This document shows, piece after piece, positions 5,242 to 51,659 of a DNA stretch of 64,000 nucleotides. How positions within the stretch are numbered: position 1 is the stretch's first letter; the number at the start of each line of letters is the position of its first letter. The notes beneath the pieces were generated by a model. The model saw only the letters and a list, made by a program, of their open reading frames with translations, was not told where the DNA came from and ran no database searches. Origin of the DNA: a virus (taxonomy: Duplodnaviria > Heunggongvirae > Uroviricota > Caudoviricetes > Crassvirales); IMG/VR virus record IMGVR_UViG_3300025288_000016, positions 431-64,430 of that record; one strand, written 5' to 3'. A program made the translations under genes and the position numbers.

Positions 5242-6750
5242 TTATGCTAGTAAGGCTGGTTTAAAAGTTGCAGTTCTAGAAGAATCTTTTACCATAGCTC
5301 CAGTGCCACACATTGCTGACATTGTTGCTGAATCTTCCATATGTTGCATAATTCCACCTCTACGTCCACTAAAAGGGTCTCTGATACCAGCTTTATATCC
5401 TCTCATTTCATCGTCACCTCTTACTTTGATTTTTTGGATATTAGGCTCTTCCATAGAACCAATATAAAGGATATCATAACGATAAGATTCTGCTACACCA
5501 CCATCTGGATGTAATATCTTATTACGTACTTTATCATCATACATTGGGTCAACTTCTAACATTACGTGAATATTATTAGGAGCTCTCCATTCAGTAAATT
5601 GGAAACCTGCACCGTAAGCATTATTATGGAACTTAGAACTAACTTTTTCAATAGCTTGAGTTCCTGTGTTATCAAATCCAACAGAAGTCCATCCAGATGC
5701 TAAAGCTGTTACAGCTCTATGGAACTGAGCAGCTCCTCTTTCACCTGTACGTAACATAAATTGACGTTCACCCCAATCTAATTTACCTTCTGATAATTCA
5801 GAAAGAATATCTTCCAACATTGCTATTGCAAAAACATTATAGGTTGAAGTATTACTTACTTCCATTTGTTCTCTAATACCAGAACCAGCTTTAATTTCAA
5901 TGTTAGAATTTCCTTTATTTAAGAATCTACCATTTTCATCTCTGTTTGTTTTACCAAACATTAATGTTCTAGCTTTAATACGAGAAATTGCTTTCTCAAA
6001 TTGCCAGTACACTTCTTGCATCCATGTAACTGACTTATGTGTTTTTCCTGTGTTAGGGTCTCTAGTTTCAATAGCTCCAAAATAAACTGGCTCTACTTTA
6101 ACATCAATCATTGCACCTGATACTTTATGTTCAAAACGAAGTGTAGATACACTATTTCTCATTAAGTAAGGAGATGTAAATTGAATTTCAGAACCTCTTG
6201 TGGAAAGTTCATCTTCAACATAAGAAGATTCAATACTGAATCTAACACCAGCAACTAAATCAGAACCTGGTACACCACCTAGAGTTTCTTGTCCACCCCA
6301 GATTTCAGCTTCATAAACATAATTTCCACCTTCTTCATAAGGCTCTTCTAACAATCTATATTGATAGTCATCTGGTTTATTACCAGCAATAACATGTACT
6401 TTAGAAAAGTATTTTTCTCCAAATACAAGTTCTAGTCTTGTACGACCAGCACCCACATTTGAATCACCAGAATTTACTACAGCTCCTGCATATCTAGCTT
6501 CTACTAAAGGAATGTTTCTTTCTTCACTTCCTACTACTTTCCATACAAAATCATCAGAGGTTTCTAGTACTTTCTCTGGGAATAATGAAAGAGTAGTATC
6601 TAGATTTTTCATCCCTGAGTTTTGTAGTAAAACAGTTGTAAGTGGAGAAACCAATTGAGGCTTCAATCCGAAGATAGCACCAATATGGTTTTTTAACGTT
6701 AATCCTGACCAAGATTTACCTTTGGTCATAACAAATTTACCTAAACTCAT
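5242..6750 (-). CDS. putative major capsid protein
   Basis: 502 aa. Sits directly downstream of the scaffold-like and portal-like genes. Followed by a strong terminator. Confidence 0.5.
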   Translation of the reverse strand: MSLGKFVMTKGKSWSGLTLKNHIGAIFGLKPQLVSPLTTVLLQNSGMKNLDTTLSLFPEKVLETSDDFVWKVVGSEERNIPLVEARYAGAVVNSGDSNVGAGRTRLELVFGEKYFSKVHVIAGNKPDDYQYRLLEEPYEEGGNYVYEAEIWGGQETLGGVPGSDLVAGVRFSIESSYVEDELSTRGSEIQFTSPYLMRNSVSTLRFEHKVSGAMIDVKVEPVYFGAIETRDPNTGKTHKSVTWMQEVYWQFEKAISRIKARTLMFGKTNRDENGRFLNKGNSNIEIKAGSGIREQMEVSNTSTYNVFAIAMLEDILSELSEGKLDWGERQFMLRTGERGAAQFHRAVTALASGWTSVGFDNTGTQAIEKVSSKFHNNAYGAGFQFTEWRAPNNIHVMLEVDPMYDDKVRNKILHPDGGVAESYRYDILYIGSMEEPNIQKIKVRGDDEMRGYKAGIRDPFSGRRGGIMQHMEDSATMSAMCGTGAMVKDSSRTATFKPALLA

Positions 6751-8109: not shown

Positions 8110-10515
8110 CTATTTCTTTACATTTTTATTTTGTCTAGCAACAGAAATTTTCTTATCTTCACGCTCCATTTTATCTTTATGTATTTTCATAGCATCATCT
8201 AATTTACGGATTTTATCTAATTTATCGTTTCTAACTTTTTCTTTATCTAACTCAAATTTTTGTTCGTCTAAAGGTTCTAAAATACCATCAGTTGTTTCTT
8301 CTTGATTATTTAATGATGCATTTAATTCAGCTATATAAATCTTAGTTTCATTATCACGTTGATTTATAATATCTTCTAATTGAAGTTTTGACTGTTCTAA
8401 TTGAAGAGCTTGTTCTTGACCTTGTTGAGCTATTTTATTAGCATCATCAGAAGCTTTAGCATTTCTTTGATTTATTTCATCTTCAGACTTTTCTAATTTA
8501 CGTCTCATATCAGACAAACTAGGACTAAAATAAATATCCATAATAGTACTCATTCCACCACCATTTTGCATAAATGCTTGTGCTGAACTTTTTAACATTT
8601 GTTCAAGTTCTTGTCCTTTTGATGAACTAGTAGCACCTAAACCATAATCACATTCAGCAAATTCATCACCTTCAATATTTAACATTTGAACAGTTTGGTC
8701 ATCCAAAATATATTGTACTTTCTTATTATTACCTTTTAATGCAATTTTAGCTGTTTCTAAAAAAGCTGTTAAAACTCTAAGTTTAACTTTTTCATGTGTA
8801 GCAAACCAATATTCAGTGATGTGTGATGATTGATTAACTGACCTTTCAACACCACCTACTGTTTCATTATTATTAATTTGTCCTTCTCTTTGTCTAGATA
8901 CACCAGCAATTTCAGACATTTCCATTTTAATGAATTCAAGTAATTGTACATGTTGTTGTATATAATTACCAGTTTCCATATCAATAGAGCGTCCTCCTTG
9001 AGTATTAAAACTACCAGCTAATTTACCAGTTGCTGCACCTTGATTACCTTCTTTAAATGAATCTACTACAGCAATTTTATTAACTATAGCAAAATGTAAC
9101 CATTTTTCTATTTCCCAATTATCAGGTACTTTAGCTAAATCTAATTCAAATATTTTACCATAATTTGTAGAAATAGCTTTATTAAGTCTATCCCATATAG
9201 CATCATACATATATTGATAGTTTTTCATTCTATCAATTAATGATACAGCTTTACCTTGATTAGTATTATAAATTTGACCTATAATTCCTGGATGACAATA
9301 AGAAGGATTATTCATTTTATTATATTGAACAGTACGAGGTATCATTTTTAAATAAATATCTTTACCTATTTTAGTACCTTCCCACCATTCATTAACCCAC
9401 ATAGATGTAGATTCTTCACCTAAATTATTGTCAGGAATATATTCTTCAGAACGTATTTTATATTCAATATCACCTTCTTCATTATAATATTTTATTTTTT
9501 GTATTTTTTTGAGAGATTTCCAATATACACGTAATACTCTTATATTACCATTTTCATCTGTATAATTAGAACCAAAATAATGTCCATTAATTTCAGCTAT
9601 TCCAAAAATACTATCATAAGCAGCAACATTTTCTGTACCAAAATTAGAATGTATTCCATCTCTAAATAAAGCATGATTGTTATTATCATCTACATATGAA
9701 TTAGCTGTTTTTTTAGAAGAATAATTTAATATATAATCAATATCAGCTTCTTTTAATTCATCATAAAAATAATCAACTATTTTACCAGGACTCCAATGGT
9801 CTTCTAAAATAATAAGTGAACTATCTTCAATTCTATCAGAATTACCACTACGAACTGAATGTACTTTTAAAGGATTTAATTTAGTTAATACTGGTTCATC
9901 ATGTATAGCATCAACTTGATAAATTTCTTCAGCAAGTATTAATGCATCTTTAAATCCAGAATTAAATATTAAACCAAATTCTTGTTCATTCCAATAATGT
10001 CTTAATATTTGATTAGCCATCTTTTCACGAATATCTTGCCAATCATATTTCATATAATCTTCAAGTTCCTTTAATTTAGCTTGAAGTTCATCTTCTTCAT
10101 AATTTGATTGAAGATATTCTTGAAGTTTTTCAAAATATAACTTCTTTTTAGAATTTTCTTTAGCAGTAACAGCATCTTGATTAGTAACCATTACTCTCCA
10201 ATCAAATCTTCTTTTTATTTCTTCTCCTACTAATAATTCTATTTTAGGAACAATAATAGGATGATGAGGTAAATTATCTGGTATAAAAGTAGCATCTAAT
10301 TGATATGGATTAACAGTATCAGTTAAATCTCTTATATCTACTATACCATTGTATAGATTAAGATTTATTACCTTATTTCTTAAACTTTTTCTAACAGACT
10401 CATTATTATAAAATGAGTGTTTATCAGCAAAATCAATATTATTCTTACGCCAAGTTTTAGTTTTCTTGGAATAAGATAATCTTTGAGGCGGTTGATTTAC
10501 ATTAATTATTGGCAT
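8110..10515 (-). CDS. putative portal protein with charged coiled-coil C-terminal extension
   Basis: 801 aa, positioned between the terminase-like gene and the scaffold. Confidence 0.45.
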   Translation of the reverse strand: MPIINVNQPPQRLSYSKKTKTWRKNNIDFADKHSFYNNESVRKSLRNKVINLNLYNGIVDIRDLTDTVNPYQLDATFIPDNLPHHPIIVPKIELLVGEEIKRRFDWRVMVTNQDAVTAKENSKKKLYFEKLQEYLQSNYEEDELQAKLKELEDYMKYDWQDIREKMANQILRHYWNEQEFGLIFNSGFKDALILAEEIYQVDAIHDEPVLTKLNPLKVHSVRSGNSDRIEDSSLIILEDHWSPGKIVDYFYDELKEADIDYILNYSSKKTANSYVDDNNNHALFRDGIHSNFGTENVAAYDSIFGIAEINGHYFGSNYTDENGNIRVLRVYWKSLKKIQKIKYYNEEGDIEYKIRSEEYIPDNNLGEESTSMWVNEWWEGTKIGKDIYLKMIPRTVQYNKMNNPSYCHPGIIGQIYNTNQGKAVSLIDRMKNYQYMYDAIWDRLNKAISTNYGKIFELDLAKVPDNWEIEKWLHFAIVNKIAVVDSFKEGNQGAATGKLAGSFNTQGGRSIDMETGNYIQQHVQLLEFIKMEMSEIAGVSRQREGQINNNETVGGVERSVNQSSHITEYWFATHEKVKLRVLTAFLETAKIALKGNNKKVQYILDDQTVQMLNIEGDEFAECDYGLGATSSSKGQELEQMLKSSAQAFMQNGGGMSTIMDIYFSPSLSDMRRKLEKSEDEINQRNAKASDDANKIAQQGQEQALQLEQSKLQLEDIINQRDNETKIYIAELNASLNNQEETTDGILEPLDEQKFELDKEKVRNDKLDKIRKLDDAMKIHKDKMEREDKKISVARQNKNVKK

Positions 10516-10616: not shown

Positions 10617-12899
10617 TTATTCTTCATCAGAATACATTATTCTTTCATTAGTTTTATTACGATTTTTATAATTTTTATTAAAAAAAGAATCATTTGATAA
10701 ATTTTTAATTTTTTCTCCTTGTCTTGCTTTAACAGATTCACTTCGTTTAACTCTATCTTCTCTAAGTATAAATAACATTATACCTGCTGAAACCCTATCA
10801 AAGTTACCATCTGAGTTCCACTTAATACATTCTTCTATATAAGCTAAACCTCTTAATCTATGAAGATTTAATCTAGTATCTTCTTCATCACCATAAGCTT
10901 TACTTCTTTGCCAATCAGCTTGAAGTAATCTACCCCATGAATTTATTTGTGCATTTGCATGTGTACCTTTAGCATTATTACCATAAAGATTAGTAGCTTT
11001 CATAAAATTCATATCTTTAAGTATTTGTGGGTTATCTGCTAAATAATGTAAACTATTATGTTTATCAAAATAACTAAATAAACCTTTTAAGTTTTTTTCA
11101 TAATTTCCTTCTGCATTATAAAACTTTAATGTTCTTAAAGCTATTTCGTATGCTTCATTAGCTGTTCTAGGTCTACCAGAATATTCTGCTACAATTCTAT
11201 CAGTAAAAGTGTCCATTACTAATATACTAAATAAAGATTCACCTGTATCAGCATCAATAGGGTCAATTCCAGCAATATATCTACCTCTAGGAATATAACC
11301 TTCAGAATTCTTTTTAGGCATTTCAAATATTTCTAAAGCTCCTGATTTATCTGCACTAGCAGTATCATAACTTCTTAAAGGATGTCTATCAGAATTAGGT
11401 CTCCATACAATAGTTCCAGTAGTATCATATACTAATTCACCAACCATGTGTTCTGCAAGAAAGCTATCTTTTTTAACAGATATTTGTTCTAAATATTCTT
11501 TTAAATCTGCTACAGGAAATACAGTACCTTCAGTACGCATTACTGCTTCTTGTGGAGTTATAGGTTCTTCTGCTTTCTTTTGTGTAATAGCATTAGCATC
11601 AGATGAACTATATTTCACTTCATATCTATCTAAACATATTTCTAGTAAAGCTTTAATTATATCTGGTTCACCTGTATTTTCGTTATAACATTTATTTCTA
11701 TTTAAATATGCTCCCCAAAAGAATCCGCATTTTGTACTACCATCAGTATTTCTATCAAATACATTAGGAATACCATATATTTTATATGCTTTAGGTCTAT
11801 AAAATAATTTTTCAGAACCAGCAAATGACGCTCCCTCAACTCCACCAGTACCACCAGCAAGCATAAATCCAGAAGCTACACCACCATCTTCCACAGCTTT
11901 TCTATTTACGTTCCAAGCTTTTTCTAAATTAGGAAACAAACCGTCTTCTTCATAATGGATTAGAGGTCCTCTGATACCCCTTGCTTTATCTGGATTATCT
12001 TTCATTGATATACCAAATACAGAAGATAATAAACCTTTTCTTCCACCATATTCATCTTCATATCCTAACTGGAGTTCCATAGCTTTTTTACCATCTTGTA
12101 ATCTCATTCTAGGTAAAGGGGTATGCGCAGCTATAAAATCTAAATTATCTAAAATTTTACCCCATATACCTTTATCGCCAGTTAAAAATGTTTTTTCAGA
12201 AGCTAAATGAAAATTAGGGTTTTGTGACCCAGGTAATACATACATATTTCTAGGACTCCAAGATGCAGTTTTTAAACTAAATCCAACTCCCCTAGTTTTT
12301 AATAACTTTCCATGCTCTCCTTCTTCTTTAGCAGCATGAACATAATGATGAAATAAATAATCCCCTAACCATGGTTTAGGAAATTTTTTAACTCTTTCCA
12401 CACGTTTCTTACTACGTGTATTTTTATCTTTTTCTGTTAAAGGAATTTGTGTATAATTCCAATAAAAATATAATTCCCCTGGAATCCATTCACCATCTTC
12501 TCTTATTTGACCATATTTCCATTTATATAATTCTTCTTTCCAAAATTGTGCATATTCAGATTTAGGATTACCATTTGGTATTAAATTAGTATATTTTCCA
12601 TTTTTTTCAAAAAATATTGCTTTCTCTCTAAAAAAATCCATATTTTCTAAAATATGAGGATTAGTTATATCTATAACTTTTCTACCATCTTCATATTCTT
12701 TAATAGTATCGTCATCATCTTCATAAGTCATTACAGGTTTATCTTTAATAAAACCTCTTATTTCTTCTGGAGCAATTAAATTTTGAATGAATTTTACTTG
12801 TGATATATATTCTAATATATCATCCCAAACTTCTTTAGGAACAGAATCTCTAACTTCATCAGTTAAAGAACTCTGGTAACTATTCATTTTTATATCCAT
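10617..12899 (-). CDS. putative terminase large subunit (atypical, 760 aa)
   Basis: Lies immediately upstream of the portal gene. The C-terminal region carries an RNaseH-like nuclease signature (YIAGIDPIDADTGESLFSILVMD). No clean Walker A was found. Confidence 0.4.
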   Translation of the reverse strand: MDIKMNSYQSSLTDEVRDSVPKEVWDDILEYISQVKFIQNLIAPEEIRGFIKDKPVMTYEDDDDTIKEYEDGRKVIDITNPHILENMDFFREKAIFFEKNGKYTNLIPNGNPKSEYAQFWKEELYKWKYGQIREDGEWIPGELYFYWNYTQIPLTEKDKNTRSKKRVERVKKFPKPWLGDYLFHHYVHAAKEEGEHGKLLKTRGVGFSLKTASWSPRNMYVLPGSQNPNFHLASEKTFLTGDKGIWGKILDNLDFIAAHTPLPRMRLQDGKKAMELQLGYEDEYGGRKGLLSSVFGISMKDNPDKARGIRGPLIHYEEDGLFPNLEKAWNVNRKAVEDGGVASGFMLAGGTGGVEGASFAGSEKLFYRPKAYKIYGIPNVFDRNTDGSTKCGFFWGAYLNRNKCYNENTGEPDIIKALLEICLDRYEVKYSSSDANAITQKKAEEPITPQEAVMRTEGTVFPVADLKEYLEQISVKKDSFLAEHMVGELVYDTTGTIVWRPNSDRHPLRSYDTASADKSGALEIFEMPKKNSEGYIPRGRYIAGIDPIDADTGESLFSILVMDTFTDRIVAEYSGRPRTANEAYEIALRTLKFYNAEGNYEKNLKGLFSYFDKHNSLHYLADNPQILKDMNFMKATNLYGNNAKGTHANAQINSWGRLLQADWQRSKAYGDEEDTRLNLHRLRGLAYIEECIKWNSDGNFDRVSAGIMLFILREDRVKRSESVKARQGEKIKNLSNDSFFNKNYKNRNKTNERIMYSDEE

Positions 12900-14347
12900 A
12901 ATCTATTATTTATTACTACAGCTTTAGTAGATAATATTACTTTAGCTATTGATATAGCATTTTGTAAAGCTACTCTAGTTACTTTAGTTGGGTCAACGAT
13001 ACCAAGTTTAAATAAATTATTTCTAACTATTTTCATATCTCCTCCATTTTTAAAAATATTATCTATAGGTGCATGTAAACAATATTGAAATTTATTATTA
13101 ATATATAATTCTCCTATAAAAGATAACTCTTTACCAGCTCCTTGAATAATACCTTCTTCTAAAGCACAACTAACAGCAAGTACAGCATCATCAATTCTAT
13201 CTTTTCTTTCTTTCATTTCAAGTTCAGATTTACCACCTACTTTAATTACAGAAATACTACCAGATAAATTATCAATTCTTTGTTGTGTTAATTCTTTTTG
13301 TGTATCTGTTAAATCAGATAAGCTTTCTTTAAGTTTATTAGCTAATTCTAAAGCTTCTATTGGTATATCTTCTTTAGTTAGTAATATACTATCACTTGTA
13401 GCTTTTAAAGAGCTTATATGTCCAATTTTACCACCAGCAAATAATGTTATATCATTCATCAAATCTTTACGATGTGTAGCAAATCCTGGAGATTTAAGTA
13501 AAGCTATATTTAATAATCCTCTATTATAATTATCTCTTAAAATAGATATTACACTATCAGAGAAATGGTCTGCTATTATAGCTATACCTTTAGGATTTTG
13601 TTCGATAATTTTAGCATAAGGTTTTAAATCATCTAAATGTCCTTCTACTACTAATAGGGGAATATCATTATATTCAATTGATTGTTTAGATGGATTATTT
13701 ATAAATGCTTTATCAAAATATCCACTATTTAATCTCATACCTTTAAGAGTAATTAATTCATCATATTCTTTATTACCTTCTTCTACTTTAACAGTATTAG
13801 AATTATTAAAAGCTTGTTGAATTAATTCTCCTATAATATCATCATTATTAGCTGATATGGTTGCTACTTCATATATTTTTTCTTTATTTAATTTATTAGA
13901 ACATAATTTAAGTTCTTTTAATACATCTTTTTCTAAATTATCTAATTCTAATTTTATTTCATTATATGTTAAAGTTTCTTTTTTATTAAATAATTTTTGT
14001 ATAAAATTTCTATTATCTTTTTTTAATAATTCAAATCCTTTATTAATAAAAGCTTGAGCTAAACATATAGATGTAGTAGTACCATCACCTGCTTCTTTAA
14101 CAGTATTTTGAGCAGCTTGTTTTACTAAATTAGCAGCTATATTTTTAATAGGGTCTTCAAAAGTAATATAATTAGCCACAGATACACCATCTTTAGTTAC
14201 ATAAGGTTTACCATTACTATCAGCAATTATAACTGTACTACCATTAGGTCCGTATGTTAATAAAACAGTATCAGCTAATTCATTAATAGCTTCTAATAAT
14301 AATTTACTACAATTTTCTCCTGTTGTTATTTCTTTATTCATTTCCAA
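12890..14347 (-). CDS. groEL: GroEL-family (Cpn60) chaperonin
   Basis: Recognisable blocks: LTYGPNGSTV..VTKDGVSVA, AGDGTTTS.CLAQAF, ATISANNDDIIGELI, ALLKSPGF..RKDLMNDITLFAGGK, ISVIKVGG.SELEMKERKDRIDDA and LGIVDPTKVTRVALQNAISIA. The last block is near-identical to GroEL [21 protein letters not shown]. Confidence 0.9.
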   Translation of the reverse strand: MEMNKEITTGENCSKLLLEAINELADTVLLTYGPNGSTVIIADSNGKPYVTKDGVSVANYITFEDPIKNIAANLVKQAAQNTVKEAGDGTTTSICLAQAFINKGFELLKKDNRNFIQKLFNKKETLTYNEIKLELDNLEKDVLKELKLCSNKLNKEKIYEVATISANNDDIIGELIQQAFNNSNTVKVEEGNKEYDELITLKGMRLNSGYFDKAFINNPSKQSIEYNDIPLLVVEGHLDDLKPYAKIIEQNPKGIAIIADHFSDSVISILRDNYNRGLLNIALLKSPGFATHRKDLMNDITLFAGGKIGHISSLKATSDSILLTKEDIPIEALELANKLKESLSDLTDTQKELTQQRIDNLSGSISVIKVGGKSELEMKERKDRIDDAVLAVSCALEEGIIQGAGKELSFIGELYINNKFQYCLHAPIDNIFKNGGDMKIVRNNLFKLGIVDPTKVTRVALQNAISIAKVILSTKAVVINNRLWI

Positions 14348-14900
14348 AATCTAAATTATCTTCAAATAAATTAAATGATTTACTTCCTTTTTTCTTATTC
14401 TCTATATCTTCTTTTTCTTTAACTACTTCTTTATATGCTGACTTTAAATCTGTCATAAGTTTAGGTACTCTTTGAATAGCTGTTGTTATTTTACTAATAT
14501 CATTAACTGGATTACCTCTAACATCTCTTTCAGACAATAAAGTTTCAGCATTTTCAAGATAATCACCAATAGCTGCAACAGCTTTTAAAGTTTGTCTATA
14601 AAGTTTTTCAAGTACAGTATCATGTTTAACATATAAAGCAATAGCTTCTTCTATAACAGAATCAATAACCCAATTATCTGGTAAACCAATATCATGTTTA
14701 ATTTCATCTATTCTATCAGCTTCTTTCATAGCTAAATAATCAGACCTAATATCACAATAGAAATATAAAAAAAGCATTTCTTTCATTGCTTTTTCTTTCT
14801 CTTTTGATTTATCACGTTTAAGTATTTTATTAAATGGCAATAGTCCCCAAACTTCTTCGGAGACTACTAATTGCCAATTTTTTATTTCAAATAATTTCAT
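14334..14900 (-). CDS. hypothetical protein
   Basis: 188-aa ORF. Confidence 0.4.
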   Translation of the reverse strand: MKLFEIKNWQLVVSEEVWGLLPFNKILKRDKSKEKEKAMKEMLFLYFYCDIRSDYLAMKEADRIDEIKHDIGLPDNWVIDSVIEEAIALYVKHDTVLEKLYRQTLKAVAAIGDYLENAETLLSERDVRGNPVNDISKITTAIQRVPKLMTDLKSAYKEVVKEKEDIENKKKGSKSFNLFEDNLDFGNE

Positions 14901-15148
14901 TAGTTTTTAATATTACTAATTGCTTTTTCTATACTTTCTTTTGTATCTTTTTTTATAGATTTAGAAGATTCATTTAATGATTTATTAACTTTTTCAGAAT
15001 TAAGAGCTTCTGTTCTTTCAACATATTGTTGAACTTCTACTAAAGAATTATATAATAATGCTACATCTTCTGTTTTTTTAAATGCTCCATTTGATAGAGC
15101 TATATCTAAACCTTGTTTTAATATATTTACTGCTTCTTTTATTTTCAT
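14900..15148 (-). CDS. hypothetical small protein
   Basis: 82-aa ORF. Confidence 0.35.
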   Translation of the reverse strand: MKIKEAVNILKQGLDIALSNGAFKKTEDVALLYNSLVEVQQYVERTEALNSEKVNKSLNESSKSIKKDTKESIEKAISNIKN

Positions 15149-15160
15149 TATATTTATATT

Positions 15161-15523
15161 TTATCTTAAATCAATTGCATCGACAACATTGTCATTTATT
15201 AATCCATAAACTTTACCATTTACTAATACTGGTTTAATTTTAATTCTACCAATCTTTTCATATGAATTTTCAGGACTTTGATGATATTCCATCATTTTTT
15301 CTAAATCTAGTAATACTTTACCACCTGGTTTTATATCAGTAATATATGTTCCTACTGCTAATACATATTGTACTTCTGAAAATGAATTATCTGATAATAC
15401 TAATCCCCCATCTGGTTCTTCCATATTTAAAGTAATTATTAATCTTCTACCTAATGGTAAAATTGGGAAATCTTTTATTATATCTAATACATCATCATGT
15501 GTCATATTTTCTACTTCTTCCAT
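15161..15523 (-). CDS. GroES/T4 gp31-like co-chaperonin
   Basis: 120 aa; ILPLGRRLIITL..EEPDGGLVL...VLAVGT......GGKVLL pattern resembling the Cpn10 fold. Located two genes from the GroEL homologue. Confidence 0.5.
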   Translation of the reverse strand: MEEVENMTHDDVLDIIKDFPILPLGRRLIITLNMEEPDGGLVLSDNSFSEVQYVLAVGTYITDIKPGGKVLLDLEKMMEYHQSPENSYEKIGRIKIKPVLVNGKVYGLINDNVVDAIDLR

Positions 15524-15798: not shown

Positions 15799-16165
15799 TT
15801 ATTAAATTAAAGTTAAAAATTATTTTAAATTGTTTGTCTTCTTTTTTTAATTCAGGAATAAATGAAGGTGTAATAACATTATCAATAATAATTTTCTTTT
15901 TTCTAAATTGAGTTAAAGTATTTTGTAATACTTGGTCTGTTATGTTTAATTCTTCTTTTATTTCTTTTTTAGTATCATAATCAAATAATATTTTCCATAG
16001 GATTTTGTTATTTGTTATATCTTGTTTTAATTTAAAATGATAATATAAAAATAAAGATAATATATCTTGTTGTTGTTTAGTGAGTCCATGATAAGGTTTA
16101 GTTATCTGTAACCACTTTTTAAATAAATCCTTCTGTAAAATATTTATATTTATTATTTTATTCAT
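15791..16165 (-). CDS. hypothetical protein
   Basis: 124-aa ORF. Confidence 0.4.
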   Translation of the reverse strand: MNKIININILQKDLFKKWLQITKPYHGLTKQQQDILSLFLYYHFKLKQDITNNKILWKILFDYDTKKEIKEELNITDQVLQNTLTQFRKKKIIIDNVITPSFIPELKKEDKQFKIIFNFNLINE

Positions 16166-16829
16166 CCTCTAAATAATTAATTATCTTAGTTAAGATAGGA
16201 TTTCTATGATTAGAAAGTAATGTTGTAAAACCTACTAATCCAGAGTTTTCTAATTTATTAATTTTATAATAACAAGAATTTTTAGATATTGATTTGTCTA
16301 TTTGTTCTTTACTACCACAAAATATAATTTTACTATTTCTACCTAATCTAGTTAATATAGTTCTAAAATCATTATAATCCATATCTTGAAATTCATCTAC
16401 TATAACAACAGAATCCATAAATGTAACACCTTTAGCTACTTCAATTGGCATAATTTGTAAATCACCATTTATTTGCATCTTAGTTGTGTTTTCTTTACCT
16501 TGACATACTTCTAAATTTTGTAATATAGGAAATACATAAGGAAACATCTTTTCTTCTAAAGTACCTGGTAAGGCTGCTAATCCATTTTTAAGCATTGGTC
16601 TAGTAATCCATATCTTATTAAATTGTTTCTTTCTAAAAGAAGATATCGCAGTATAAGTAGCTACTAAAGATTTACCACTTCCAAAATCTCCTAGAATAAA
16701 GTTTACATCATAATTATAAAATTTAGCTAAAACTTCTTTTTGTTCATCATTAAGACTTACTTTTAATTTTGGTTCATTTTTTAATACTCTTTTTTCTTTA
16801 TTCTTTATTTCCATATCTTTTAAATCCAC
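16158..16829 (-). CDS. phoH: PhoH-like P-loop ATPase
   Basis: Walker A GDFGSGKS and a VIVDEFQDMD Walker B/DEAQ-like box. Size and order are typical of phage PhoH. Confidence 0.6.
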   Translation of the reverse strand: MDLKDMEIKNKEKRVLKNEPKLKVSLNDEQKEVLAKFYNYDVNFILGDFGSGKSLVATYTAISSFRKKQFNKIWITRPMLKNGLAALPGTLEEKMFPYVFPILQNLEVCQGKENTTKMQINGDLQIMPIEVAKGVTFMDSVVIVDEFQDMDYNDFRTILTRLGRNSKIIFCGSKEQIDKSISKNSCYYKINKLENSGLVGFTTLLSNHRNPILTKIINYLEDE

Positions 16830-28425: not shown

Positions 28426-28543
28426 GGGGGAGTAGCTCAGTTGGTAGAGCACTTAAAACTCTATTCTGTATAAGAATAGATACAGCAAAATAACTATGCA
28501 ATTTGAATGCAATGGTCATAGGTTCGATTCCTATACTCCCCCC
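28426..28543 (+). ncRNA. tRNA-like structured RNA, non-canonical (~118 nt): acceptor, D-arm and T-arm present, with ~66 nt in place of a normal anticodon arm. Candidate Y-RNA/YrlA-like RNA.
   Basis: GGGGGAG-TA-GCTC-AGTTGGTA-GAGC 5' end and ATAGG-TTCGATT-CCTAT-(A)-CTCCCCC 3' end. The interior contains an 8-bp hairpin TCTATTCT/AGAATAGA and no U33/anticodon loop. Confidence 0.55.
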
Positions 28544-29159: not shown

Positions 29160-30635
29160 ATGAAAAAAAACACAATTAACAGACCAGGACAAAAACCTGT
29201 ACAACAATCACTTTTAGTAAATGCTGTAAGAAAAGAAAAAAAAGTATATACTAATAATGGTGCTAGAACAAATGCTACATCATTATATAAAGTATTAGAT
29301 TTATTTTTTATTGCTGGTGCATCACGTAATATGAATGATAAAAAAATCATTGAAATGTTTGATGCAGCATTAGCAGAAAATACTTTATTAGCATTAAAAT
29401 GTATATTTTGGGCTAGAGATATTAGAGGTGGTGCAGGTGAAAGAAGATTTTTTAGAATCTGTATGGAACATTTAAGAAAAGATTATAATGAAATTTATAA
29501 ATCTATGACTCAATATGTTCCTGAATATGGTCGTTGGGATGATTTATTTTTTTCAAATGCAACAGCTTTATCTAATTACAGAATGATTAGGACAAGTTTA
29601 AACAACAAAAATGGTTTATTAGCTAAATGGTTACCACGTAAAGGTAATATAGCTAAAATTATTAGAGATAAACTTGGATTATCACCTAGAATATATAGAA
29701 AAACTATTGTTAGATTATCACAAACAGTTGAACAACAAATGTGTGCTAAACAATGGAAACATATTAATTATTCTGGTGTACCATCTGTAGCTATTAATAA
29801 ATATAGAAAAGCTTTTTATCGTAATGATGAAGCTAGATTTACTCAATTTATAACATCTGTTACAAAAGGTACTAAAAAAATTAATGCTAAAGCTATATTT
29901 CCACATACACTTGTTAGAGCAATTTATCAAGGGGAAAATGAAAGAGCAGTTGAAGCACAATGGATGAATTTACCTAATTACATGGAAGGTTCAAAAGATA
30001 GAATTTTACCTATTTGTGATACTTCAGGTAGTATGTCAATAAATAGTAATATTCCTATGGATGTGTCTATAGCACTAGGTATATATATTTCAGAAAGAAA
30101 TAAAGGTCCATTTAAAAATGCTTTTATGACATTTTCAGCTAAACCTGAAATGCATGTTACTAATGGTACATTATCTCAAAGATTAAATCAAATTAGAAAT
30201 GCTCCTGCTGGTTATAATACTAATTTGGTAGCTTGTTTTAATCTTCTTTTAGAAACTGGTATTAAACATGATTTATCTAATAAAGATATGCCTACTAAAA
30301 TATTAGTTATTTCTGATATGGAATTTGATGGTACAGCAAGTAGTTATTATGTTAGTGCTAGAGAACAAGCCAAATCTTCTAGAGAATTTTTAAGTAATTA
30401 TGAAATTATTAAAAGAAATTATACAAACTCTGGTTATAATATGCCAAGTATTGTATTTTGGAATGTAAATGGTAGAGCTGAAAATGTACCTGCTACAAAA
30501 GATGATAGAGTAGGTTTAGTATCTGGATTTAGTCCTGCAATATTAACATCAATATTATCAGGTAAAATTTATAGTCCATCTCAATTAATGTTAAGAACTA
30601 TAGATTCTGATAGATATAGACAAATAAAATTATAA
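29160..30635 (+). CDS. von Willebrand factor A (MIDAS) domain protein with alpha-helical N-terminal domain; Ro60/TROVE-like or DUF2828-like architecture
   Basis: MIDAS motif DTSGSM at aa 287-292 begins a C-terminal vWA domain. A ~280-aa helical N-domain with ARDIRGGAGERRFF precedes it. 491 aa in total. Confidence 0.5.
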   Translation: MKKNTINRPGQKPVQQSLLVNAVRKEKKVYTNNGARTNATSLYKVLDLFFIAGASRNMNDKKIIEMFDAALAENTLLALKCIFWARDIRGGAGERRFFRICMEHLRKDYNEIYKSMTQYVPEYGRWDDLFFSNATALSNYRMIRTSLNNKNGLLAKWLPRKGNIAKIIRDKLGLSPRIYRKTIVRLSQTVEQQMCAKQWKHINYSGVPSVAINKYRKAFYRNDEARFTQFITSVTKGTKKINAKAIFPHTLVRAIYQGENERAVEAQWMNLPNYMEGSKDRILPICDTSGSMSINSNIPMDVSIALGIYISERNKGPFKNAFMTFSAKPEMHVTNGTLSQRLNQIRNAPAGYNTNLVACFNLLLETGIKHDLSNKDMPTKILVISDMEFDGTASSYYVSAREQAKSSREFLSNYEIIKRNYTNSGYNMPSIVFWNVNGRAENVPATKDDRVGLVSGFSPAILTSILSGKIYSPSQLMLRTIDSDRYRQIKL

Positions 30636-46443: not shown

Positions 46444-47246
46444 TAAAACAAATTAAAATAGGTACAGACCCAGAACTATTTTTGAAAAAAGATGGTGAAA
46501 TTATTTCTGCTGAAGGTCTAATAGGAGGTACTAAAGAATTACCTCTAAAAATTTCTAAACAAGGTCATGCTATTCAAGAAGATAATGTTATGATTGAATT
46601 TAATATTCCTGCTTGTACTAATAGTGAATCTTTTGTAAAAGAAATAAATTTTGTAAAAGAATATTTAGAACAATTAGCAAAAATATATGATTGTACATTA
46701 GATTATTCTGCTTCTGCAATATTAAATAAAAAATATTTAGATACACCTCAAGCAAAAAGATTTGGTTGTGACCCTGATTTAAATGTTTATTTAAAATCAA
46801 TAAATGAATCACCTAATTCAAACACTAATATGAGAACTTGTGGTGGTCATATTCATATAGGATATAAAAATCCTTCTTTAGAAACAAGTGAATCAATTAT
46901 CTATGCCATGGATATTATGTTAGGACTTGAATCTTTAATACTTGATAAAGATACAGAAAGAAGAAAAATGTATGGTAATGCAGGTTGTTTTAGATTTAAA
47001 GATTATGGTGTAGAATATAGAACTTTATCTAATTTTTGGATTACATCTGATGAATTAATAAAATGGGCATTTGATAATACATTAAAAGCTATTGAATTAG
47101 TAAATTCAGGATTAATACCAGAGTTAATAACTGAATTTGGTAATGAAATTAAAAATGCAATTGACAATAATAATAAAAATGAAGGTCAAACATTATTAAA
47201 GAAAATAAAAGAAAAAATAAAAGAAAAGAAATGTGTGGAATTGTAG
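46434..47246 (+). CDS. GCS2-like carboxylate-amine ligase (amidoligase), short paralogue
   Basis: IGTDPELFL (lG.E.Ef.lvd-like), CGGHIHIG (compare YbdK GQHVHVG) and VEYRTLS. Confidence 0.5.
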   Translation: MRVIKQIKIGTDPELFLKKDGEIISAEGLIGGTKELPLKISKQGHAIQEDNVMIEFNIPACTNSESFVKEINFVKEYLEQLAKIYDCTLDYSASAILNKKYLDTPQAKRFGCDPDLNVYLKSINESPNSNTNMRTCGGHIHIGYKNPSLETSESIIYAMDIMLGLESLILDKDTERRKMYGNAGCFRFKDYGVEYRTLSNFWITSDELIKWAFDNTLKAIELVNSGLIPELITEFGNEIKNAIDNNNKNEGQTLLKKIKEKIKEKKCVEL

Positions 47247-49192
47247 CTTGGGCAGGTAAAACACCTAAAAAATTTAACAAAGCAAAGTTTGATTTAGTAG
47301 CTTCTTATAATGAAGAAAGAGGTACAGATTCATGTGGTGTAGCAACTGATGGATTTATATCTTTAGGAGTTCATAACAATAAAGTTTATAGAGATTTTAT
47401 TGTTAATGTAAAATATGAAATTCCAGAAATTATTCCAGCTGTTATAGGACATACTAGAAAAAGTACTTTTGGTGAACATAATGAAGATAATGCTCATCCA
47501 TTTGGTTTTGGAGAAATAGAAGGTGGTAGATTTGAATTTATAGGTGTTCATAATGGGAGCTTATTAAATCATAAAATACTTGCTAAAAAATTTAATATTA
47601 ATTCAACAGAATATATAACGACTAATAAAAAGAAAAATAAAGTTTCAAAAAGTAGAGAAAAAATTGATAGTGAAATATTATTAGAATGTATTTATAAAAA
47701 TAAAAATTTTAAAGTACTTAGTTCATATCTTGGTGCAGCAGCATTAGTTTTTCAAGATTTAAATACTCCAAATATAATTTATTGTTGGCATGGTGCATCT
47801 AAAAAATATGTAAATGATAATGATGGTAAAATATATGAAGAAAGACCTTTATACTATTATAAAGAAACTAGAAATAGTATTTATATATCTTCAATGGAAA
47901 ATTCATTAGAAGCTATCGGTGGAATTAAAGATGAAACTATATTTGAATTTAAACATAATGTTGTATATAAAATAACAGATGGTAATATAGAAAAAGCTGA
48001 ATTATTTCCTTTAAGTAGAAAAGAATGTCATTACATGAGGTCTTATGGTCAAGATTATGAAAATATTAATCCTGTAAATAATAATCAAACTAACGCTTAT
48101 AAAAAAACAGCTAATTATGGTTTACAAATTGATTTTTATAATGATGAAGATTTTTTAAAACATCAAGGTTGTTGTAATATTGATACAAGTAAAAAAATTT
48201 TAGCTCTTCCTTTTTCTCAAAATATAAAAGATATAGATTCTGTTAATAATAATCTTTATTCCCAAAAAGGTATAATGATTTCTCATAATATTTATAATGA
48301 AATAAAACCTGAAACAGAATATAAAACTAGTTGTTATTTTTGGAAACTTAGATATTGGAAAGATACAAGTTTATTACAAGGATGTTATACTTTTATTGAA
48401 AATTTTGGTTTTTATTATCTTGGTAAAAATATTAAAACTGCAAATGACCAATTTTGGTTTTTAACAAACAAAGAATTTTTTCAAGGAGATTTCTGTTTTG
48501 TAAACCAAAATTTAACTAAAGAAGATGGTGCATTTATACCTTTTTTACAAGTAGGTGGAGAAGATGAAATTATTGAACCACCATTATATTATTTCTATAA
48601 AGGAATTAGAGTATTAGAAGTTACTGATTATATCCATTGTTTAGAAATGGAAGAGAATAAAAAAACATTTACTTGGGAGAATATGACTCATTGTTCTGCT
48701 CACCCAATTATAGATATAGGTTATTCTCAAAAAAGTATTTCTACTCAAGGAATTAAACTTAAAGATAGATTAGTTACTGACATTATTTGTCCATTAGGTT
48801 CTAATAGAATTTATACAATTGAAAATGGTAATTGTATAAAAATTGAAGACAAAATGATTATAGATAGTGATGATAAATCTAAAGATAAAAATGATTCTAA
48901 AACAAAAACTGTAGATACAGTTGATACTATAGTTGAACTTCTAGAGGATTTTGAAAATGATATTCAAAAAAATGAAGCATCTAAAAATAATATAGATAAT
49001 ACTAGAGATTATGATTTAGTAGAAAAAACTTTAGAAGAAATTTTTAAGATACCTTTTGGAAAATTTCCATTAGATATAGCAAGATTACAAAAATATTCTA
49101 ATTTAGAAAAGGTTAATGACGCAATTATTATTTTAGAAACATTTTTAACAGATACTAGAAAATTAATTGAAATTGAACCAAAAGAACAATAA
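47231..49192 (+). CDS. N-terminal nucleophile (class II) glutamine amidotransferase domain protein with long uncharacterised C-terminal region
   Basis: Begins MCGIVAW (Cys2 nucleophile), then ..GTDSCGVAT.., IGHTRKSTFG and GVHNGSLLNH. No PP-loop SGGxDS was seen. Confidence 0.65.
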   Translation: MCGIVAWAGKTPKKFNKAKFDLVASYNEERGTDSCGVATDGFISLGVHNNKVYRDFIVNVKYEIPEIIPAVIGHTRKSTFGEHNEDNAHPFGFGEIEGGRFEFIGVHNGSLLNHKILAKKFNINSTEYITTNKKKNKVSKSREKIDSEILLECIYKNKNFKVLSSYLGAAALVFQDLNTPNIIYCWHGASKKYVNDNDGKIYEERPLYYYKETRNSIYISSMENSLEAIGGIKDETIFEFKHNVVYKITDGNIEKAELFPLSRKECHYMRSYGQDYENINPVNNNQTNAYKKTANYGLQIDFYNDEDFLKHQGCCNIDTSKKILALPFSQNIKDIDSVNNNLYSQKGIMISHNIYNEIKPETEYKTSCYFWKLRYWKDTSLLQGCYTFIENFGFYYLGKNIKTANDQFWFLTNKEFFQGDFCFVNQNLTKEDGAFIPFLQVGGEDEIIEPPLYYFYKGIRVLEVTDYIHCLEMEENKKTFTWENMTHCSAHPIIDIGYSQKSISTQGIKLKDRLVTDIICPLGSNRIYTIENGNCIKIEDKMIIDSDDKSKDKNDSKTKTVDTVDTIVELLEDFENDIQKNEASKNNIDNTRDYDLVEKTLEEIFKIPFGKFPLDIARLQKYSNLEKVNDAIIILETFLTDTRKLIEIEPKEQ

Positions 49193-49197
49193 AATTT

Positions 49198-50919
49198 ATG
49201 GAAACAAATATGGTAACCACAGTAGATGGTAGAATAGAAGAGAAGATAAATTGTAGAAAAATGAATGGTTTATATTATGTTAAAGGCGATATAAATATTG
49301 AAAATTCTGGTGAATGTTACTTAATTGATGATAAATATTATAAATATAATACTGGATATATAATTTTTGATAACAGTGTACATAAATATGTATTAAAAAG
49401 TACACTTAAAGATAAATTTTATGTAGAAAAAGGTATTATAGATTTTAAAAATGGTAATGAGCCAATATTTGGTAGTTATTCTTTAGAAAAAAATAATGAT
49501 ATTTATGTTTTAATTATAAATAATAAATATTCTTGTATTAATGAAGATATTTTAAAAAATAATATACATTTTTTAGAAAATTTAGAAGATGGAATATATT
49601 ATGAAAGAAACAAATTAGATTCTTATAAATATGTTTTTCCTACAAAATGTAGTAGAGATTTTAAATATTCTTTGTCTTACGATTCTAGAGGATTAACTGA
49701 AAAAGCAGAAAAAAAATATATTGAATCTTATAAACCAGAATTATATCATATTGGTTTAGAATCAGGTAAAAGTGATATTACAAAAGGTTTAAGTTTTGGT
49801 CTTGAATTTGAAACTTCATTAGGAATAGTTCCGTTAAGAATATGTTCTAATTTAGGATTAATACCTTTAAGAGATGGAAGTATAGATGGATTAGAATATG
49901 TAACAATACCATTAAAAGGTAAAAATGGTATGCAAACAGTGTTAGATACTTTAAAAGTATTAAAAAGAAGAACAGTTTATAATAATGATTGTTCATTACA
50001 TTTGCATATTGGTAATATTCCAAGAACTGAAGAATTCTTTTTAGCATTGTTTAAAATATTATTTATATTACAAGATGATATGTATTCAATGTTTCCATTT
50101 CATAAAAAAGAAAATTATGAAGTAAAAAGAAAACATTATACAAAACCACTTCCTTTAAAAGAAACAATGTTATTATTTGATTCAAAAATTAAAACTAAAG
50201 AAGATATTAAAAGAAATTTTGATATTTTATATAGATTTTTATCAATGAACCAAAGTTATGATGCTGCTGGAGGAAAACTTTCTAATATTAAATCTCATCC
50301 TTCTGACCCAGGAGGTAATAGTAAATGGAATATTAAAACTCGTTATTATTGGGTTAATTTAATTCCATTATTATTTGGAAATAAACAAACTGTAGAGTTT
50401 AGAATTCATACTCCTACTTATGATAGTAATAAAGTAATTAATTATATGTTAACTTGTTTTTCTATAATTGATTATGTTATTAAAAATGAAACTTCTATAT
50501 TAAGTAATTTTCAACAACATGTTAATATTAATTTAAATCATGTTGTATTTGAAAGTTATTATAAAGATTTTTCAAATATTAGAATTGTAGAAGAACTTCA
50601 ACGTTATTTTGATTGTAGAAAAAGACATTTCTTTTTTAAAACTAAAAAAGGTGATTTTTTAGCAAATGAAGATGAATTTTCTTATACTCCTAAATATTTG
50701 AATTGGGAATCTACAAATAATAAATTAAATAACTCTTTCAAGTTTAGTTCTAATTTAAGTGTACCTGCTTATGATAATATAGGTTTAGATATACAACTTA
50801 ACGACGCAATAAGGCGCGTTGCTGCTAGAATAGATGATAATATTAGGATAGTTAATCCTGCATTTGAAGAAAATGATTTATTTATAAATAATGAACCTGA
50901 ACAAGAACTACCAATATGA
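49198..50919 (+). CDS. GCS2-like carboxylate-amine ligase (amidoligase), long paralogue
   Basis: GLSFGLEFETSLGIVPL, DGSIDGLEYVTIPL, CSLHLHIG and TVEFRIHTPT. Same motif order as 46434-47246. Confidence 0.5.
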   Translation: METNMVTTVDGRIEEKINCRKMNGLYYVKGDINIENSGECYLIDDKYYKYNTGYIIFDNSVHKYVLKSTLKDKFYVEKGIIDFKNGNEPIFGSYSLEKNNDIYVLIINNKYSCINEDILKNNIHFLENLEDGIYYERNKLDSYKYVFPTKCSRDFKYSLSYDSRGLTEKAEKKYIESYKPELYHIGLESGKSDITKGLSFGLEFETSLGIVPLRICSNLGLIPLRDGSIDGLEYVTIPLKGKNGMQTVLDTLKVLKRRTVYNNDCSLHLHIGNIPRTEEFFLALFKILFILQDDMYSMFPFHKKENYEVKRKHYTKPLPLKETMLLFDSKIKTKEDIKRNFDILYRFLSMNQSYDAAGGKLSNIKSHPSDPGGNSKWNIKTRYYWVNLIPLLFGNKQTVEFRIHTPTYDSNKVINYMLTCFSIIDYVIKNETSILSNFQQHVNINLNHVVFESYYKDFSNIRIVEELQRYFDCRKRHFFFKTKKGDFLANEDEFSYTPKYLNWESTNNKLNNSFKFSSNLSVPAYDNIGLDIQLNDAIRRVAARIDDNIRIVNPAFEENDLFINNEPEQELPI

Positions 50920-51659
50920 GAAGAGCAATTTTAAAACGTCCATTAAATTTAGATTATACTGAACTTTTTGGAAAAAGTTGGATAGATGTATTAACACCAT
51001 TACTTGCTTCTTCATATATGTTTAATTTAATGGCACTTATAAATGAAATTTATAGTTTGTTACCTAATCAAATATTAGGACAAGGATTTGTATATCCTTA
51101 TAAAAGTAGACTATTTACAAATTTTAGAGCTTGTGATTGGATTAATTTAAAAGTAGTAATAGTAGGAAGAGAACCTTACCAATCACATAGAGCAATAGGT
51201 GTTCCTTTTGCCACACATGTTAATAATAATAATGTTATTTTAGAAGATGATTTAATATTAATTGAAAGATGTATTCGTAAAAATATATATAATAATTCAA
51301 CACAATATGTATTTGATGAATCTCTAAGTACATGGGGGATGCAAGGTGTATTTCTTATTGATGCTGCTTCTACATCAGAAGAAACTAGTAAAAATGCACA
51401 TTCTATAATATGGAAAAATTTTACTAGAGAAGTAATAAAAATAATAAGTTCAAAAAAAACAAATATTATTTTTTTATTATGGGGTGCAGAAGCTAAATAT
51501 TTTAGTAGATATATTGATAGAGAAAAACATCATGTATTAGTTTATGACCATCCTAGTGATGCAAAAACTCGTAATACAGATTGGAATTGTACACATTTTA
51601 AAAGTGTTAATGACATTTTATTAAGAACTACAGAAAATAATGAAGAAATAGATTGGTAA
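50916..51659 (+). CDS. Uracil-DNA-glycosylase-superfamily fold protein (divergent)
   Basis: VVIVGREPYQSHRAIGVPFA (compare family-1 GQDPYHGPNQAHGLAFS) and a C-terminal VYDHPSD (compare HPSPLS). Confidence 0.45.
   Translation: MRRAILKRPLNLDYTELFGKSWIDVLTPLLASSYMFNLMALINEIYSLLPNQILGQGFVYPYKSRLFTNFRACDWINLKVVIVGREPYQSHRAIGVPFATHVNNNNVILEDDLILIERCIRKNIYNNSTQYVFDESLSTWGMQGVFLIDAASTSEETSKNAHSIIWKNFTREVIKIISSKKTNIIFLLWGAEAKYFSRYIDREKHHVLVYDHPSDAKTRNTDWNCTHFKSVNDILLRTTENNEEIDW

Follow-up and report, generated by a model that had tools for sequence, protein, structure and literature searches.

The 64,000-nucleotide stretch of DNA analysed here (the window; positions 431 to 64,430 of IMG/VR record IMGVR_UViG_3300025288_000016, from a phage of the Crassvirales) encodes on its minus strand a GroEL homologue (12890..14347) and, a little upstream, a 120-amino-acid (aa) protein (15161..15523) that resembles the Cpn10/GroES co-chaperonins. 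That the first protein belongs to the group I chaperonins (Cpn60) is virtually certain, and the second is very probably a Cpn10/GroES homologue, very divergent. On balance, the two are considered to be parts of a phage-owned two-component group I chaperonin system, which would be made together with the head proteins and would fold a large virion protein.

The GroEL homologue

The open reading frame (ORF) at 12890..14347 encodes 485 aa if read from the TTG at 14347; the most likely product is a protein of 483 aa (53.5 kDa) starting two codons later at the ATG at 14341, which is the start chosen by gene callers in six independent assemblies. The first-pass annotation, made from the letters alone, had described this ORF as a 485-aa GroEL homologue about 60 aa shorter than bacterial GroEL, and both statements hold. 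The protein matches the Pfam profile Cpn60_TCP1 (PF00118) at 122.1 bits (cut-off 34.3, E-value 3.5e-35), phrog_5725 "chaperonin groEL" over its full length (1.3e-97) and solved GroEL/Hsp60 chains of the PDB at about 1e-64, and it is 63 aa shorter than Escherichia coli GroEL (485 against 548). An AlphaFold2 (AF2) model produced with 39 family members has a mean predicted local distance difference test (pLDDT) value of 90.7 and comprises equatorial, intermediate and apical domains. Using Foldseek, this model was superposed over its whole length on mitochondrial Hsp60 (mtHsp60) and GroEL chains (E-value 5e-40, template modelling (TM) score up to 0.87), the best whole-chain superpositions being those with single-ring and ATP states of mtHsp60 (TM 0.84-0.87).

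Sequence comparison places the protein on a divergent viral branch, and not among the orthologues of cellular GroEL: identity to E. coli (MG1655) GroEL is 33%, and the NCBIfam GroEL models score it under every curated cut-off (best 287 bits against 352; 274.7 against 582.1 for the equivalog model TIGR02348). More than 100 homologues of 461-501 aa are carried by contigs of about 100 kb. Phage chaperonins had been called rare in the first-pass annotation, which is overstated, because 288 phage records (from Vibrio, Flavobacterium, Aeromonas, Cellulophaga, Bacteroides and other phages) hold a homologue and marine viromes hold many (PMC5649160).

The nucleotide-binding site is well preserved. The two sequence blocks pointed out in the first-pass annotation were found at residues 86-92 (AGDGTTT, 14072..14092, minus strand, equivalent to E. 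coli G86-T91 with the catalytic D87) and 452-458 (DPTKVTR, 12974..12994, minus strand, equivalent to D495-R501 in the equatorial domain). Pocket residues T30, G32, P33, G35, K51, D52, G53, D87, T89-T91, D155, D398, G414, G416 and D495 (E. coli numbering) are all conserved, G415 being the sole checked residue that is replaced, by Ala both here and in roughly half of the clade.

The length differences were located by counting residues between invariant anchors in the window and E. coli proteins. The largest is found in the equatorial domain, where the segment G416-D495 is shortened by 32 residues (47 residues from G405 of the GxG motif to D452, at 12995..13135 on the minus strand, against 79 in E. 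coli). The same count ranges from 42 to 65 (median 47) across 39 clade members and is 47 and 56 in the crAss-like phages cr108_1 and phi14:2; the deletion is not seen in the GroELs of Cellulophaga phage phi38:1 (76), podovirus ctfjg026 (81) and Vibrio phage Va1 (81). Through this shortening, residues E461, S463 and V464 of the inter-ring contact helix are deleted in 16 of 16 crAss-like sequences. R452 is replaced by D. The left inter-ring contact is also changed in the window GroEL, K105 being E and A109 being K, directly followed by a 14-aa insertion (NRNFIQKLFNKKET, 13973..14014, minus strand, residues 112-125). This insertion, which stands right after the helix of the K105/A109 contacts in a segment (D87-D155) longer by 13 residues than in E. 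coli, has the lowest confidence of the whole AF2 model (pLDDT 61); it is missing from homologue P0026 (82-85% identical) and from 37 of the 38 other clade members, and is practically confined to this phage. The segment P279-G318 is 17 residues shorter than in E. coli and its length varies within the clade.

The C-terminus is shortened by 20 residues (34 after the D495 equivalent, 54 in E. coli) and ends with INNRLWI and a stop codon (12890..12913, minus strand) in place of the GGM-repeat tail, the loss of which the first-pass annotation had proposed to look for. Most GroELs of the clade terminate in a conserved N(E/N)RLW(K/N/I) motif, of (N/D)xRLW type; we know of no described counterpart for a conserved terminal Leu-Trp at the cavity floor.

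R452, E461, S463 and V464 are the positions mutated to obtain the single-ring GroEL SR1 (R452E/E461A/S463A/V464A), and the same positions are replaced (R452D) or deleted (E461, S463, V464) in the window protein. SR1 was engineered by point mutation and keeps its equatorial domain at full length, whereas whole helices are naturally absent from the phage GroEL. A single ring is suggested because the inter-ring contact helix and the GGM tail are lost and R452 is replaced; these residues give a nearly even chance, no better, that the crAss-type GroEL works as a single heptameric ring.

At the other end of the molecule, the apical groove retains Y199 and F204, as well as L237 and L259 (both as I), and has lost Y203 (A), L234 (A), V263 (R) and V264 (D). 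Position 263 is K/R and position 264 is D/E clade-wide, in contrast with phi14:2 and cr108_1, which keep V/I at 263/264 and Y at 203, where the window clade has A. The equatorial and apical changes together are read from the alignment as a remodelled ring bottom combined with a lid- and substrate-binding groove that would be less hydrophobic.

The Cpn10-like protein

The 120-aa protein (13.5 kDa; 15161..15523, minus strand) is a divergent candidate for a Cpn10/GroES-like co-chaperonin, as had been proposed in the first-pass annotation. The proposal fails at the level of a direct Pfam match, and stands at the level of family profiles and of the structural model, which recover both the homology and the fold of Cpn10. 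A phmmer search of the PDB using the protein alone gave GroES as a weak third match (E-value 0.67). The top matches of that search, polysaccharide deacetylases (E-value 0.04), disappeared when family profiles were used, and this identity was rejected.

The family comprised 24 close relatives at first and reached 145 clusters (at 50% identity) after an exhaustive profile search. With a profile of 22 sequences, the top PDB matches were GroES (E-value 0.013), and with a profile of 67 sequences (hmmsearch) Mycobacterium tuberculosis Cpn10 was matched at 1.7e-4 over residues 2-95, followed by four further Cpn10/Hsp10 entries, including those of Thermus thermophilus, Mycobacterium leprae and human Hsp10. 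Alignment of the 67-member profile to E. coli GroES by hhalign gave a probability of 91% and an E-value of 9.8e-7 over GroES residues 1-95. The Pfam Cpn10 profile (PF00166) is matched directly by 7 of the 22 and by 5 of the 67 family members (best E-value 1.7e-11), and the predicted structure of the 120-aa protein has the GroES beta-barrel fold.

The predicted mobile loop (EPDGGLVLSDNSFSE, 15374..15418, minus strand, residues 36-50) carries a glycine followed by a hydrophobic tripeptide in GGLVL. Its sequence DGGLVLSD aligns with AGGIVLTG of the GroES mobile loop, and the model is disordered at residues 38-45 and nowhere else (pLDDT below 50). Loop position 41 is hydrophobic in 58 and position 43 in 53 of the 67 family members; the middle position is hydrophobic in about half of them and acidic in 20. 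The same mobile-loop pattern, often with a polar residue within the tripeptide, was found in virioplankton GroES (Marine et al. 2017, PMC5649160).

Four differences from GroES were noted: an N-terminal extension of 19 aa with a helix, an insertion of about 16-20 residues after the strand KVLLD, a mobile loop shorter by about 4 residues, and the absence of the roof beta-hairpin (a 9-residue gap opposite GroES RILENGEVKP). The last does not exclude a co-chaperonin, since the roof is likewise lost in T4 gp31, in the Cpn10 of phi38:1 and in many virioplankton GroES. T4 gp31 shares with the phage protein its fold and the lack of a roof, and no sequence similarity to gp31 was detected; the mobile loop of gp31 is longer than that of GroES, so that the phage loop departs in the opposite direction.

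In GenBank, the chaperonin genes of cr108_1 and phi14:2 are labelled GroEL and those of crAss001 and cr116_1 "putative 10kDa chaperonin". The homologues of the 120-aa protein in phi14:2 (g096) and cr108_1 (gp084) are annotated "hypothetical protein", and the gp084 gene model appears to begin downstream of the N-terminal region found in its relatives. The portal is flagged by virion tandem mass spectrometry in the phi14:2 record and GroEL and g096 are not, which lends weak support to a non-structural role.

Gene neighbourhood and its history in crAss-like phages

The region forms the upstream end of a head-gene operon, in a crAss-like (Steigviridae-like) podophage of about 100 kb that is marine and is not a jumbo phage. 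The interval 12890-15523 belongs to a long run of genes all read from the minus strand, and the window is very rich in AT (GC 20-31%). The order on that strand is PhoH-like ATPase (16158..16829; Pfam PhoH 5e-40), 124 aa, 95 aa, the 120-aa Cpn10-like protein, 82 aa, 188 aa, GroEL, large terminase (TerL), portal, 382 aa and major capsid protein (MCP). TerL (760 aa, 10617..12899, phrog_6681 1.4e-98) is directly downstream of GroEL, and is followed by the portal protein (801 aa, 8110..10515, phrog_6547 7.4e-164) and by a crAss-type MCP of 502 aa and 55.8 kDa (5242..6750, phrog_11589 9.6e-140). These three follow one another in the conserved order of the Crassvirales head module, and contigs that are identical or related to the window have Pfam families Crass_capsid, CrAss_Ring_3_4 and crAss_AuxCP in their gene tables. 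The annotated relatives that match best belong to the Steigviridae (Crassvirales): they are Cellulophaga phage phi14:2 and the uncultured phage cr108_1. The window proteins are also encoded on a contig of 99,929 bp and in dozens of other assemblies.

The GroEL ATG at 14341 overlaps the stop codon of the 188-aa gene (ATGAATAA), and the last 10 nucleotides of GroEL, stop codon included, are shared with the beginning of TerL (ATGGATATAA). The first-pass annotation had placed GroEL between the terminase and a GroES-like gene; the latter is not adjacent to GroEL, being separated from it by the 82-aa (14900..15148, minus strand) and 188-aa (14334..14900, minus strand) ORFs. No terminator-like site was found on the minus strand between 8000 and 22500 by the intrinsic terminator scan. 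Over the same range, sites from the sigma-70 promoter and intrinsic terminator scans were no commoner than in shuffled sequence, the promoter scan being uninformative on crAss or Bacteroidota promoters. With its overlapping starts and stops and no minus-strand terminator, the arrangement therefore resembles a single operon with translational coupling, as far as gene layout can indicate.

The same arrangement was recovered from four more contigs of about 100 kb, some of them from Tara Oceans, whose GroELs are 40-52% identical to that of the window. In all five the order is about 125 aa, about 97 aa, Cpn10-like, 57-82 aa, about 185 aa, GroEL, TerL, portal, about 380 aa and MCP. The proteins of about 120 aa on those contigs are 47-61% identical to the window ORF. 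An ORF of 57-82 aa occupies the slot of the 82-aa ORF in all five loci of the clade; the 82-aa ORF itself, of unknown function, matches no Pfam, PHROG or NCBIfam family.

The best phage-database matches of the window GroEL are those of phi14:2 (g105) and cr108_1 (Steigviridae, Asinivirinae), at 33-36% identity over 98% of the length. Both phages share with the window the TerL, portal and crAss MCP genome type, the short G416-D495 segment and the lack of a GGM tail, and both have a gene homologous to the 120-aa ORF, located two genes ahead of TerL. They differ in having 8-10 small genes between GroEL and TerL, whereas the window GroEL abuts TerL.

Crass-like genomes without GroEL at this locus were also found. 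In cr116_1, a Cpn10-like gene annotated "putative 10kDa chaperonin [phiCrAss001]" lies three genes upstream of TerL, and no GroEL was detected in the complete genome (tblastn best E-value 2.1). Two contigs (L021 and L022) have the order Cpn10-like, 185-194 aa or so, (54 aa) and TerL with no GroEL at that spot, the layout of L021 being Cpn10-like, 184 aa, TerL. The simplest history is that the lid gene is an old component of the crAss-like head module, and that GroEL is an accessory gene which landed between the gene of about 185 aa and TerL in the clade of the window.

The 188-aa gene, of unknown function, has a weak match to phrog_16390 (unknown function, 1.2e-4) and is 27-37% identical to genes upstream of TerL in phi14:2, cr108_1 and cr116_1. 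Its homologues are at 8156-8743 in phi14:2 (L002), 9420-10010 in cr108_1 (L001), 1191-1739 in L003 and 10549-11103 in L021. By these comparisons it is conserved among crAss-like phages, and relatives that have no GroEL at this spot carry it immediately before TerL. It has invariant residues, W77, Y90 and E124 among them, and a basic KKKGSK tail. An identification as small terminase (TerS) was not retained, the gene having only the weak unknown-function PHROG match and another gene being annotated as TerS in cr116_1; a packaging role, perhaps small terminase-like, is only a guess. The PhoH-like ATPase is a frequent neighbour of the pre-terminase gene string, GroEL being present or not: it precedes the Cpn10-like gene by about 1 kb in L011, L013, L021 and L022, and is not in L012 and L014.

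A chaperonin pair in the canonical order was also observed in phi38:1, with Cpn10 (gp007), an ORF and GroEL (gp005); as in the window, one or more short ORFs stand between the two genes and the Cpn10 has no roof hairpin. The phi38:1 Cpn10 is detected by Pfam and its GroEL has 521 aa and a full equatorial domain (76 residues between the anchors), whereas the window co-chaperonin is under every library threshold, with N-terminal and internal additions, and its GroEL is about 40 aa shorter. The window pair is in a packaging and head operon, that of phi38:1 among replication genes.

Several features elsewhere in the window were recorded. A third Rfam tRNA match on the plus strand (28427-28542; 35.5 bits, gathering score 29) spans 116 nucleotides for a model of 71 positions; ARAGORN made no tRNA call at 28427-28542, and an intron or another interruption within a tRNA could explain the match, as could a tRNA-like element. 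Together with a tRNA-Gln (30907-30980), this match flanks a plus-strand gene (29160-30635) for a 491-aa protein with DUF2828 and DUF7788 domains, matching phrog_850 "RNA-binding protein" at 2e-139; DUF2828 proteins are related to Ro/TROVE-type RNA-binding proteins. Consecutive plus-strand genes at 47231-51659 encode a 653-aa protein with an N-terminal GATase_6 (glutamine amidotransferase) domain, a 573-aa Amidoligase_2 protein and a 247-aa protein of the uracil-DNA glycosylase (UDG) superfamily, a trio which is possibly a module for nucleotide/DNA-base or peptide modification in the crAss-like replication region. A minus-strand ORF of 1231 aa (59857-63552), with no PHROG or Pfam family, lies at the second strand switch; the sign of the GC skew switches at about 22 kb and 60 kb.

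Proposed mechanism and rival explanations

In the proposed mechanism, GroEL and the Cpn10-like protein would be made along with terminase, portal and capsid protein, all of them being expressed from a single string of co-directional and overlapping genes. A heptamer of the Cpn10-like protein would then cap the phage GroEL ring, docking by its mobile loop GGLVL, and the client would be a large virion protein, for which the 55.8-kDa crAss MCP is the most plausible candidate. T4 gp23, which is of the same size class as the crAss MCP, needs the roofless gp31 lid on GroEL. The window GroEL is also nearer to the cellular, co-chaperonin-dependent group I chaperonins (1e-64) than to the jumbo-phage proteins EL gp146 (3e-24) or OBP gp246 (7e-16). 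Joint action of GroEL and the Cpn10-like protein is given even chances, and the capsid protein as the main client, as gene position suggests, is a tentative proposal somewhat below that level. Single-ring systems cycle only with moderate lid affinity, according to work cited in PMC9598537; the altered apical groove and the shortened mobile loop may weaken lid binding as a single ring needs for cycling. A more specific form of the proposal, in which a naturally minimised, obligate single-ring chaperonin (inter-ring helix and GGM tail gone, RLW ending conserved, apical groove charged) has co-evolved with a roofless, short-looped and N-terminally extended Cpn10 into a TerL-coupled 7+7 cage dedicated to the MCP of about 56 kDa, is speculative and rather unlikely.

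Several observations weigh against a dedicated phage pair. The 120-aa ORF alone matches no Pfam (including Cpn10), PHROG or NCBIfam family. The Cpn10-like and GroEL genes are not adjacent in the window, and they are further apart in phi14:2 and cr108_1, where the Cpn10-like gene stays near TerL and GroEL is found 2-3 kb upstream. The Cpn10-like gene is older and more widespread than GroEL, and it is kept in crAss phages that have no GroEL, where it must act with another partner, presumably the host GroEL; the host GroEL could therefore be its partner here too. Replacement of the GroES-binding residues V263, V264, Y203 and L234 could, from the sequence, equally be compatible with lost lid binding. 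Concerning the ring state, mitochondrial Hsp60 shows that rings can be stacked through other contacts, and missing contact residues alone back a single ring.

The strongest rival, which we regard as clearly less probable than a phage-owned pair, assigns the two proteins to different partners: the Cpn10-like protein would keep an ancestral role as a lid for host GroEL, of the gp31/CocO type, and the phage GroEL would be a later, lid-free addition. T4 gp31 and RB49 CocO are indeed co-chaperonins for host GroEL, the present phage differing in that it additionally encodes its own GroEL. The Cpn10-like gene at the same place in GroEL-less crAss-like genomes and the replaced GroES-contact residues V263, V264, Y203 and L234 speak for this explanation, as does the fact that all three biochemically studied phage chaperonins are lid-free, two of them, from OBP and AR9, being single heptameric rings (PMC9598537). 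These jumbo-phage proteins (EL gp146, OBP gp246 and AR9 gp228) are phage-encoded Cpn60-family ATPases like the window GroEL; unlike it, they are co-chaperonin-free, with none encoded in the genome, and belong to myophages of more than 200 kb. The comparison with EL-like jumbo phages made in the first-pass annotation does not designate the closest relatives, EL gp146 being matched at 3e-24 and cellular proteins at 1e-64. The same difference in distance (OBP included, at 7e-16) argues against a lid-free phage GroEL, since the group I chaperonins to which it is so much nearer are lid-dependent. The phage GroEL moreover has no extra apical element usable as a built-in lid, the gene neighbourhood is strictly conserved across deep divergence, and viral GroELs are often paired with a GroES of their own (40% of viral GroEL contigs; Marine et al. 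2017, PMC5649160).

Rather improbable is a general proteostasis or host-takeover chaperonin, acting on endolysin, polymerases or large enzymes or at low temperature, which would not be capsid-specific and for which the position next to TerL would be incidental. Endolysins are the only demonstrated substrates of phage chaperonins (PMC9598537). The position of GroEL also differs among related phages, and is therefore not a reliable guide: phi38:1 has it flanked by DNA-replication genes, Vibrio phage Va1 carries it between the genes for tail sheath and tube, and in phi14:2 and cr108_1 it lies 2-3 kb upstream. Against a general role stand the overlap-based coupling to TerL, the fixed place of GroEL at the head of the TerL, portal and MCP string in five divergent genomes, and the parallel between a roofless lid with a 55.8-kDa MCP and T4 gp31/gp23.

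A small beta-barrel of GroES fold with another job (scaffold, decoration or DNA-binding), and no co-chaperonin function, is a very unlikely identity for the 120-aa ORF product. Finally, an assembly error that put part of a cellular groEL into a phage contig is effectively refuted, as is a truncated pseudogene; reduced length is the only argument for either. Against them, at least six independent assemblies of different origin contain this 483-aa gene in an identical context, more than 100 homologues of 461-501 aa are found on contigs of about 100 kb, the catalytic residues are intact and GC is uniformly low.

Phage GroELs and viral GroEL and GroES pairs are already known, and the increments reported here are modest. 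Viral contigs carrying GroEL have been described in their hundreds, and 40% of these have a GroES as well, in either order (Marine et al. 2017, PMC5649160); GroEL and the pairs are common in marine viromes, and roofless viral GroES and loop variants were reported in the same work. A search of the open-access literature, of incomplete coverage, found no paper on chaperonins of crAss-like phages. Three elements are new: crAss-like phages with a GroEL are recognised as having the cryptic Cpn10 homologue as well, GroEL has been inserted immediately ahead of TerL in one clade, and a crAss-specific loss of the inter-ring helix goes together with charges in the apical groove. Genes left as "hypothetical" ahead of TerL in phi14:2, cr108_1 and numerous crAss-like contigs are, very probably though not certainly, Cpn10 homologues which escaped standard annotation.

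The phage chaperonins studied biochemically (EL, OBP and AR9) are all lid-independent and from jumbo phages, and the commoner marine GroEL and GroES pairs have never been characterised. The clade described here offers a compact and conserved pair, consisting of a 53.5-kDa GroEL without inter-ring contacts and a 13.5-kDa roofless lid candidate, in an order (Crassvirales) for which cultured members and solved capsid structures exist. Such a system could reveal how a single ring cycles with a lid, and why a crAss capsid protein of the size of gp23 needs folding help. If the minimised single ring with its lid were true, no earlier phage GroEL would have been shown to depend on a phage lid, and the engineered SR1 systems would have a compact natural counterpart.

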